A model generated the notes under the pieces. That model had not been told where the DNA came from. It made no database searches and was given only the letters and a program-made list of their open reading frames with translations. A stretch of DNA of 64,000 bases, taken from the NCBI RefSeq assembly GCF_036365525.1, contig NC_090378.1:93671605-93735604 (forward strand), in the 5' to 3' direction. The translations under genes were made by a program, and so were the position numbers. Positions 39,501 through 42,500 of the stretch are shown piece after piece; the first letter of the stretch is position 1; each line of letters opens with the position of its first letter. Source of the DNA: Heterodontus francisci (Eukaryota).

Positions 39501-42500
39501 TGGTGTTAATTGAGGGATGAATGTTGGCCAGAACATTCTGCACTTGACCTGTTCTTGCACAAAATCATTGGATAAAATGTACAAAACCCTGTTTGGTTAC
39601 TATTCTGTTTGACTGTTAACCTCTCCCTCTGTTAACAGGTGCCCTTTGTGCGTTTTGTCCATAAAAACAAAATAAGTGAAATTAAAAGGTAAATGGAGGC
39701 CGCGTGACCATGTTTTTGCAGAAATACAGGAACGTGGGCTGTTCTGTGGCATGTTATTCCTTCGTAACAAAATGATAAACAGAAACAAATTGTTCTGCAG
39801 GAAGAAGTTTTTACTTTATTGCAAAATGTTTTGTATTAGATACATTGGTTACTGTGATGCTGAAAGCTTTTAAAAGCCTTTTATTTGCCATCACCATCAA
39901 TTATTGCCTGAATGTCTAATCAATGAGAAAATGGTCTTGCAGTGCCTGAGTGAACAGTTTCAATCTGTGCTCTGTGTCAGCTATCTTGCCTTGAGCAATC
40001 CCTACATTTCATGTCTTTAGTGGGTCAAGTGAGCATTCAAGGCAATGGTGCACCAAAGACTCCAGTGAATCAGTGCACACGAGTTCCAAAGTGGGTGGTA
40101 CACCTGGAGAGACCAGGGACATGGAGGCTCAGTCGATCTTGACGGAAGGACTTCATTAACATAAAAGTTCTCAGGGTCCCGCTCAAACTACCTGGCTGGT
40201 GTGGGCAGGGATGGGAATTTAGCAACAAGAGGCTGCAGCCATGGTCCACCGTATGAAGTCCATCCGTGGACTTGAGGGCAATTTGGGGAGAGGTGGATCT
40301 GGGGGGGGTTCCAAGGTAATCAGAGATCAAGGGGAGGCCAGGGCTGGGAAGGCTAAGGAGCTCCTTACAGGGCCTTGGGGGAGCACTCCTGCCTCTCCTG
40401 GTCCACAAGGAGTTTGAACAGAAGTATTTTTAAAAGACTGACCGTGGTCATTTGTGACCAGTCGGTTTCTCCTGCCGGGTTGCAGACAGTGTAGAACTAC
40501 CTCTGACTTCAGGTTAATATTATTTTAAATGTTAAGTGGGCCCCCGCCTTCCTATAGCAGGAGCGTCGACGATGACCTGATCCACCACCATAAAGCTGAT
40601 GATGGCCAGGAACATGGCAAGTTGGAACCAGGAGAAAATCTTTTCAGATTTTAACCCCTCTCACTCGCCTTTTTCGCTCGGCAAAAGGTGTTTAAAACCC
40701 TGGCTATAAACCCTAGATTAAGGAGCAATCTGGTTCTGATTCATCACTTTGTTTTATTTTGGCAATAAAAATAGTTATGTTGAGTGACATTTTAGATGGC
40801 TGTTGAACGTACTGTATGAAAATGCAGGTTGCCTTGAAAACTCATTGAGGAAAGATAGGTCTGAACTGTTCCATGTCCTAAGCGAATACTTATCGTTTGG
40901 TTCTAAAGATACTGCATGAAGAAAAGGTTTCTTCCGAATGGGCTTCCTTATCAAATACACTGTGCATTTGATATCGTTGATCTTGAGCAGGACTCCATCT
41001 TCGCTGTTGCAGAGTTAATTCAAATTGTGTCTGAGATTGTGAGCAGATATCCTTCAGCTGGGGTAAGAATGTGATTTGAATATCAGTTAATTGGACACTA
41101 GTTTGGAATTAAATATTTCTCTGTTCATTAAACATTATTTCACTGTCTGTACTGCTTTCATACTTTATGGATATTTTGAATAATTTACTTGGATTAACAG
41201 TTTCCATCCGCACTGTAATTTCAGAGTGGGTCCTCGCTCCACTGCTTATTATGCTATTTCCTGCTTGCTCCTTCTCATATCATTGAAAGAAATTTCACAA
41301 CACAAACATGCTCAGTGCTCTTAATAAAAAAAGATAAACATACTGTATGATATAGGTCTTTATATGATGTATAACAAAACAGTATTGAATGTCACTTTCC
41401 ATTGGTAGCTTGCATTTAAGGGAAGGCGGCTTGGCACTGCCATGAGATCAAGTCTACAGTGGTAAAACCTGATGCCTCTGTGAAAGCAATACTGAAAAGT
41501 CATCAGCCACATTATACTGTGTTATTGCTGTATTAGTTTCTTGCTGATTTACTTTTGCAAGTCTAAAGAGGATATGAAACACTAGACAAAACTAGCTGTT
41601 AAACTATTTCAATAAACTTTGGAGGTGGGAGATTGAAATTGCTCTGCACAATGTCAGTAACAAACACATTAATATGTTTATTGTACAATTGCGGATGGTG
41701 GAATTTCATGTAATGAGTTTAATGGCTTACTGAAACACAGAACAAAGGAACTTCACACAAACATGTGCATTAGCGTATTAATTGCAAAGCATGACCAACT
41801 CCTTAAGGTGGAAAAGTGCTTCCAAATATAATGCTGAGTTTTCCTGGTGTGTCTAGTTTGTCATGGCATGGAAAATATTTACTTTGCCTATGGAGAGAAT
41901 TCTGGGGATTTATGGTTGATTCTCCCACGCATTCAATGTCTAATTACAGCTGTTGGAATGTAATTTCACTAATACTGACTCCCAACATTTCTCTGGAGTG
42001 TAACAACCGTGCAAGATTTTGGAGGAAAATAATTGACAAAGAAGCAGAGCTTCTCCTTGGCTGAAATACTCTGACACTAACCTACTGTTCAATGATGTAG
42101 AAATCAGAAATGGCATAGCGGCCAGTATTAAGCTACCACAGGATGCAATACAGAATTCAGCCATAAAACATTAAAAGACCGGGAGGAAAAAATAAACTCC
42201 ACAACCTTTCATATCCCTTTACCTGGGCTACATTCAAAATGGTATCTCCATACACATCAGATCATAGAATCATACATCACAGAATGTGGCCATTTGGCCC
42301 ATTGTGCCTATCCAATTAATGGAGTGTTGCATTACGCTTTAGTTTAAATAGTGCAAAAAGATTTGCATTTGACTTCTATATGCCAATTTAATACATTCTA
42401 ATAAGATTAAACAGTAATATAACATGGTATGACGAAAGATAATTAGTTGTCTTTAATATTTTATCTGAGGCATTCTAAGTGTAAGACTATACTTTAGTCT

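Follow-up and report, generated by a model that had tools for sequence, protein, structure and literature searches.

A second, much shorter GCN2 copy in sharks and rays reads leucine at the motif-2 arginine site

The window, that is, the whole stretch of 64,000 nucleotides of Heterodontus francisci DNA analyzed here, carries on its forward strand most of a gene whose 23 GT-AG coding exons (20 inside the window and three past its end, at window-equivalent positions 64387, 77920, and 79555) reproduce the 893-aa isoform P0075 exactly. Coding exons 1 to 10 (12423..33972, with the ATG at 12423) encode a kinase domain bearing Lys50, Glu68, HRD, DFG, and Thr308/Thr313, and they include a conserved kinase-insert segment (22248..22319, aa 110-133) that matches the repressive beta-strand motif of GCN2. 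The end of the kinase and the junction helices (aa 421-456), which form the most conserved segment, share one exon (35046..35291). Eight exons spanning 35939..51323 (35939-36023, 39144-39265, 39639-39688, 40909-41062, 42547-42645, 43455-43607, 48185-48304, and 51222-51323) then encode a HisRS-like catalytic fold and a shortened insertion domain, followed by the first exon of the anticodon-binding domain (51758..51886). Isoform P0001 omits the in-frame exon at 43455-43607, equivalent to 51 aa of the insertion domain, and the Heptranchias isoform P0003 is without the portion that holds HisB and motif 3. The annotated proteins of this group range from 725 to 936 aa, and those viewed start no further upstream than the kinase.

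Splicing joins the first coding exon to an upstream exon whose 3' end (9058..9088) shows no in-frame ATG over the stretch observed. This splice, leaving from position 9088, was present in loose contig ends in 4/4 runs; the 5' contigs reach 43 letters upstream of it, and the upstream exon is known in part. Positions 9074-9076 read CTG where related sharks seem to start (MSSSRV), and the N-terminus of the Heterodontus protein is either about seven residues shorter or begins at a non-AUG codon. A GC-rich stretch at 8150-8450, upstream of the 5' exon, is a candidate promoter. Introns were seen by eye to hold broken LINE-type reverse-transcriptase/endonuclease fragments (14288-16900, 32021-32764, 44115-44396, 52289-53279, and 54226-55211) as well as short tandem arrays at 17932-18399 and 38040-38250, one a GC-rich repeat that carries an open frame, the other with GTGACATCACTCCC in a repeat unit of roughly 30 bases. 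Codon scoring around the gene for neighbors returned mostly repeats.

The exon structure and domain content read as a second, much shorter GCN2 copy of sharks and rays. The first-pass annotation had overlooked that the gene is a truncated paralog beside an intact GCN2. Its 893 residues comprise kinase, junction helices, HisRS-like, and anticodon domains, without RWD, pseudokinase, or C-terminal domain (CTD), whereas a canonical GCN2 with RWD, pseudokinase, VFRP, GGRYD, and CTD sits on contig C9; this full copy rules out the paralog as the animal's only GCN2. The canonical RWD, pseudokinase, and CTD exons gave no tblastn match at E < 0.05 in the 464 kb around the paralog, while the canonical kinase and motif-2 exons, serving as controls in the same 464 kb, do match. 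A Pfam RWD search found no match even to the canonical RWD exons, and what the PF12745 genome search picked up was a HisRS-like piece lying in repeat DNA rather than GCN2. A fragment at L004 1291-1737 (contig C49) lies within repeat DNA and is possibly a processed copy; we take it to resemble the anticodon domain of histidyl-tRNA synthetase. The paralog itself runs on for about 30 residues past the anticodon domain, as a basic tail of low confidence. This tail (aa 863-893, from the last two exons, beyond the window) stands in the place of the CTD with nine Lys/Arg and zero acidic residues; it aligns poorly across species, yet it is basic in most.

Compared with GCN2/EIF2AK4 (human 8T7T, yeast 9F58, and the shark copy on C9), the paralog shares the kinase with its APPP..SVEW insert motif, the junction helices, and the HisRS-like plus anticodon fold, and differs, in addition to the missing domains, by its shorter insertion domain. 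The modeled kinase domain, with a large N-lobe insert, is closest to GCN2 (7qq6; Z 26.2, rmsd 2.6, 257 aligned). The top Foldseek match of the HisRS-like and anticodon region is 8t7t (E 3.7e-24), and the structural comparison of the HisRS-like domain gave Z 25.4 and rmsd 8.7 over 384 aligned; these models agree with the earlier proposal that the HisRS fold is kept. Furthermore, PF13393 matched weakly in 9/10 paralog proteins, and GCN2 and HisRS clusters appeared in the ESM Atlas at 0.83, which we treat as a lead. The full-length model had a pLDDT of 64.7 and a pTM of 0.43.

At least nine intron positions are common to the paralog and the canonical gene; consequently, the paralog is a DNA-level duplicate, and a retrocopy is ruled out. 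A quick tree built on 32 rows united the 12 paralog rows in one clade, whose stem measures about 2.8 changes per site and whose short internal branches split the two rays from the sharks. A topology test on 16 rows did not reject a clade of the paralog with the shark's own GCN2 (p-AU 0.161). Searches relying on shared words returned no relative outside sharks and rays. In a check for an ohnolog origin, three marker families with matches on contig C9 gave none on C8, and the marker families on C9 pair with C13 and C40; the matches are presumably MEIS-, thrombospondin-, and PBD-family genes. Among 12 paralog sequences, invariant columns made up 78% of the junction helices, 65% of the motif-2 region, 61-73% of the kinase core segments, and 7% of the loose part of the kinase insert. 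The HisRS-like domain is constrained rather than decaying.

The motif-2 exon (40909..41062, aa 559-610; AG/GT flanks, phase 2 start) is 100% identical to a Heterodontus francisci protein labelled 'GCN2-like', and nine more shark and ray protein clusters match it at 82-98%. It reads YCMKKRFLP at 40910-40936, followed by a shortened invariant loop, NGLPYQ. Human GCN2 is its best match among solved structures, and YCMKKRFLP aligns without gaps to the human YCIERVFRP and also to the yeast QHVYRP. The CTT codon at 40931..40933 encodes Leu567, which faces yeast R1120 and human R1144, as counted along the whole-protein alignment with the numbering checked against PMC6421407, where the human motif-2 pair is given as F1143/R1144. 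The first-pass annotation had placed a leucine at the motif-2 arginine on the gap-free alignment, and its reading is borne out by our alignments and by a profile of 19 Arg-bearing GCN2s, which assigns Arg565 to the column of Val at a posterior of at least 0.95, Phe566 to that of the aromatic at about 0.9, and Leu567 to that of the motif-2 Arg at about 0.7. The other register, with the arginine of KKRF in the motif-2 column, had been named as the case against this reading; it is disfavored by the same profile, a judgment made at the level of sequence. The leucine is conserved among orthologs, as RFLP is present in 13/13 paralog sequences, which represent 12 species of sharks and rays, and none keep FR. 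The loop before the cysteine is also shorter, as had been noted, with 8 residues from Pro to Cys after motif 2 against 13 in human (five fewer). A chance resemblance is ruled out by these 13 sequences together with the match of the whole protein to human GCN2 (E 9e-75). A sequencing error or a pseudogene is likewise ruled out by the 23 exons that give the protein exactly and by the spliced contigs of runs X1, X4, and X6 (two studies; presumed RNA, their contigs being spliced), which show 0 differences over the motif-2 exon span 40905-41061.

It is important to consider how far this substitution resembles the engineered gcn2-m2 allele (yeast Y1119L/R1120L; human F1143L/R1144L), to which it had been likened. 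Arg becomes Leu at the same position, but the adjacent aromatic, Phe566, is retained, and only half of m2 is changed. Moreover, the paralog alters the Y1092 site, bears an arginine two residues upstream, and is without the autoinhibitory domains. The m2 allele had also been described as abolishing tRNA binding; this agrees with the report on human GCN2, where binding was abrogated (PMC6421407), but in yeast it was reported as reduced only (PMC4335047).

Other positions of the tRNA pocket have changed as well. Leu539 (CTG, 39254..39256) occupies the site of yeast Y1092, whose aromatic side chain stacks as cation-pi partner on the motif-2 arginine and which is an m2-suppressor site (PMC11363354); Y1092C is reported to suppress m2 and to activate the kinase (PMC4335047). 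At the sites of yeast R1325 and D1327, the HisB motif GGRYD is replaced by GGQYT (48284..48298) in 12/12 paralog sequences having HisB, while the canonical shark copy retains GGRYD; according to the yeast study, tRNA binding is abolished in R1325A and activation is blocked in D1327A (PMC4335047). Thus, both pocket arginines are lost in 12/12 paralog sequences with both sites but in 0/45 full-length GCN2s, the latter set being 50 longer proteins minus four without a HisRS-region match and one unaligned. HisB Arg alone is lost in 8/45, invertebrate for the most part, with Lys in a ninth. Proteins P0011-P0018, which are GCN2s of insect, oyster, and crustacean origin plus one more, have no HisB Arg and read GGNYS, GGCYD, or GGSYE.

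The motif-2 arginine is kept in 19/45 full-length GCN2s, 17 of them with the aromatic partner, and absent in 26/45, all 26 also without the aromatic. Two residues upstream, where the Arg-bearing GCN2s have Val, Ile, or Ala and none of the 19 has Arg or Lys, 21 of the 26 carry Arg or Lys and the remaining five Val. The 21 proteins, named Cryptococcus, Kwoniella, Naganishia, and kin (within P0027-P0059), belong to a group whose class we take to be Tremellomycetes. All 13 paralog sequences follow the same three-site pattern, with Arg565 (AGG, 40925..40927) as a candidate compensating charge. Two mushroom-type fungi are without the aromatic only, which hints at the order of loss, and four GCN2-like proteins (P0048, P0050, P0052, and P0056, one of them under a diatom name) carry His in place of the motif-2 Arg and Glu in place of the aromatic. 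In the 16-row topology test, a clade of the paralog with Cryptococcus was rejected (p-AU 3.75e-5); hence, the three-site pattern arose twice, and the counts of 21 and 13 represent two lineages rather than 34 separate events.

These fungi bear directly on what the leucine means. C. neoformans phosphorylates eIF2-alpha under 3-AT (histidine starvation) with Gcn2 as its sole such kinase (PMC10127693), and assuming that the strain of that study has the same pattern as cluster P0044, the motif-2 arginine alone is not decisive. In a 2026 preprint (bioRxiv 10.64898/2026.09.09.750423), P-stalk activation is reported to need m2 and tRNA not to activate mammalian GCN2, results that weaken the reading of this arginine as a tRNA-only sensor. 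Activation by ribosomes, like that by the P-stalk, also requires motif 2. The first-pass annotation had inferred a loss of tRNA sensing from the leucine and the m2 allele; this argument does not hold for the leucine alone, given that 26/45 full-length GCN2s lack the arginine, and it is further weakened by the change in the aromatic partner. Nevertheless, classical tRNA sensing has likely been lost in the paralog, because both pocket arginines, the HisB Asp, the basic loop, RWD, pseudokinase, and CTD are gone together.

The recurrent pattern also suggests that Arg565 may fill the space left by the aromatic and replace the motif-2 arginine, so that a polyanion, either a tRNA end or the P-stalk tail, would be sensed without GCN1. 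The two independent origins, the restriction of the upstream charge to Arg-less proteins, and the 3-AT response of C. neoformans are consistent with this shift. However, Cryptococcus-type Gcn2, which resembles the paralog in having no aromatic, no motif-2 Arg, and Arg/Lys two residues upstream, is of separate origin, full length, and the cell's only eIF2-alpha kinase, with RWD and GGRYD kept, while the paralog is truncated and keeps neither RWD nor GGRYD. Additionally, the residues listed at the predicted dimer interface (563-566 in, 567 out) do not put the Arg565 side chain in the pocket. We therefore consider this shift of the charge possible but rather improbable.

Two copies of residues 412-862 were predicted to pair with a score of 0.65 (best control 0.01), with contact agreement of at least 66% and pLDDT of 71-74 among runs, and with helix-helix contacts at 431-431 and 451-451. 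The mark for a dimer was reached by 21/30 solved homodimers and 0/23 monomers from microbes and by 17/29 homodimers and 0/30 monomers from eukaryotes, but by just 1/7 homodimers without an older solved relative. Since GCN2 dimers are already solved, the pass of the paralog shows likeness and may stem from the predictor's prior exposure to them. The model predicts a HisRS-type homodimer with crossed junction helices, having the same kind of interface, and this agrees with the structural dimerization role that had been proposed as one of two alternatives to tRNA sensing.

An engineered kinase/HRSL construct is reported to be active without tRNA or ribosomes and insensitive to RNase, and the junction helices to drive the activation of such kinase-plus-HisRS constructs (PMC11606652). 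Human GCN2, according to PMC6421407, gains about 20-fold in basal activity on CTD deletion, and full ribosome binding needs the pseudokinase, HisRS-like, and C-terminal domains. The paralog, with kinase, junction, HisRS-like, and anticodon content only, fits the active construct, which it equals in domain content and in its conserved junction-helix bundle. It differs from the construct, where the pocket and the salt bridge of the N-lobe are intact, and it is a natural gene under purifying selection. We put at even chances that the paralog is an eIF2-alpha kinase scaffolded as a dimer, its coupling to GCN1 and to classical tRNA sensing being likely lost. In such an enzyme the HisRS-like domain would serve mainly as a dimerizing scaffold that pairs two kinases and, by analogy with the constructs, holds them together. 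Without the autoinhibitory CTD, the output would depend on expression and on the repressive strand that the insert retains rather than on starvation, and the invariant new loop would be kept by contacts at the dimer interface and not reflect the decay of a dead site. The paralog fails as GCN2 proper, in RWD, pseudokinase, CTD, and the m2 Arg, yet likely works like the GCN2 core.

The catalytic motifs of the kinase domain are intact. No variation occurs at the catalytic Lys and Glu in 11/11 paralog sequences having them or at HRD-Asp, DFG, and Thr313 in 12/12, and both activation-loop threonines are conserved. Given the match of the kinase and its alpha-G motif, TAQER, we infer phosphorylation of eIF2-alpha Ser51. 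On the other hand, the N-lobe salt bridge R585-E589, whose loss is reported to make human GCN2 hypomorphic (PMC11336063), is replaced by Leu16/Gly20 in 11/11 sequences having this part, and the paralog keeps the repressive insert strand with a weaker version (3-5 acidic residues in 9) of the acidic patch that relieves it, both elements being described in the 2026 preprint (bioRxiv 10.64898/2026.09.09.750423). The absent salt bridge and the retained strand with its weaker patch argue against high basal activity. Relative to GCN2, the hinge, MDFCK-MTLE (25890-25910), has lost one residue, in or next to the position where R794G in yeast and S808G in human are activating.

These features would also suit a weak kinase that tunes canonical GCN2 through mixed HisRS-domain dimers or by holding eIF2-alpha. 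Its partner is present in the genome, the activating salt bridge is missing, the hinge is shortened, and the repressive strand is retained; moreover, an always-active eIF2-alpha kinase would be toxic, as stated in PMC11606652. The conservation of all catalytic motifs and of both activation-loop threonines speaks against such a modulator, as does a new N-terminal helix in the model that may substitute for the salt bridge, and we judge it unlikely. We hold it likewise unlikely that the remodeled pocket binds another metabolite, RNA, or protein through which a new stress would switch the kinase, the second alternative of the first-pass annotation. The long stem followed by slow change among species and the invariant new pocket residues fit a functional shift followed by constraint, but interface packing accounts for the same conservation and no candidate ligand emerged from the analyses.

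The public record of the paralog consists of the automatic 'GCN2-like' label. We found no published description of the paralog or of the fungal pattern in a search that most subscription journals lie outside. The closest counterpart in cartilaginous fishes is PKR-sis, an extra eIF2-alpha kinase that likewise goes without the usual regulatory domain of its family, as described in the survey PMC11305385; it is, however, sister to PKR, of about 537 aa, and with no HisRS-like domain in the description seen there, while the kinase of the paralog matches GCN2 best. PKR-sis is described in the available text of that survey and the paralog is not, and five paralog accessions are absent from the text of one of its supplementary files, while its other tables or figures may include the gene.

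Whether uncharged tRNA or stalled ribosomes switch GCN2 is debated, and both models give motif 2 a central place. The paralog offers a natural, long-conserved kinase-plus-HisRS core with a rebuilt pocket, the motif-2 Arg, the aromatic partner, the HisB Arg/Asp, and the N-lobe salt bridge all being replaced, in a genome where intact GCN2 stands as the control, and it gives cartilaginous fishes one more likely eIF2-alpha kinase. The convergent three-residue pattern means that loss of the m2 arginine alone cannot be equated with loss of starvation sensing. It is a tentative proposition, and one we consider rather improbable, that sharks and rays hold an undescribed extra stress kinase made from the activating core of GCN2, with a switch other than starvation, and that the motif-2 charge moved twice to a site two residues upstream, with loss of its aromatic partner, in elasmobranchs and in Cryptococcus-type fungi. 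If true, it would provide a natural swap for separating tRNA from P-stalk sensing in GCN2.
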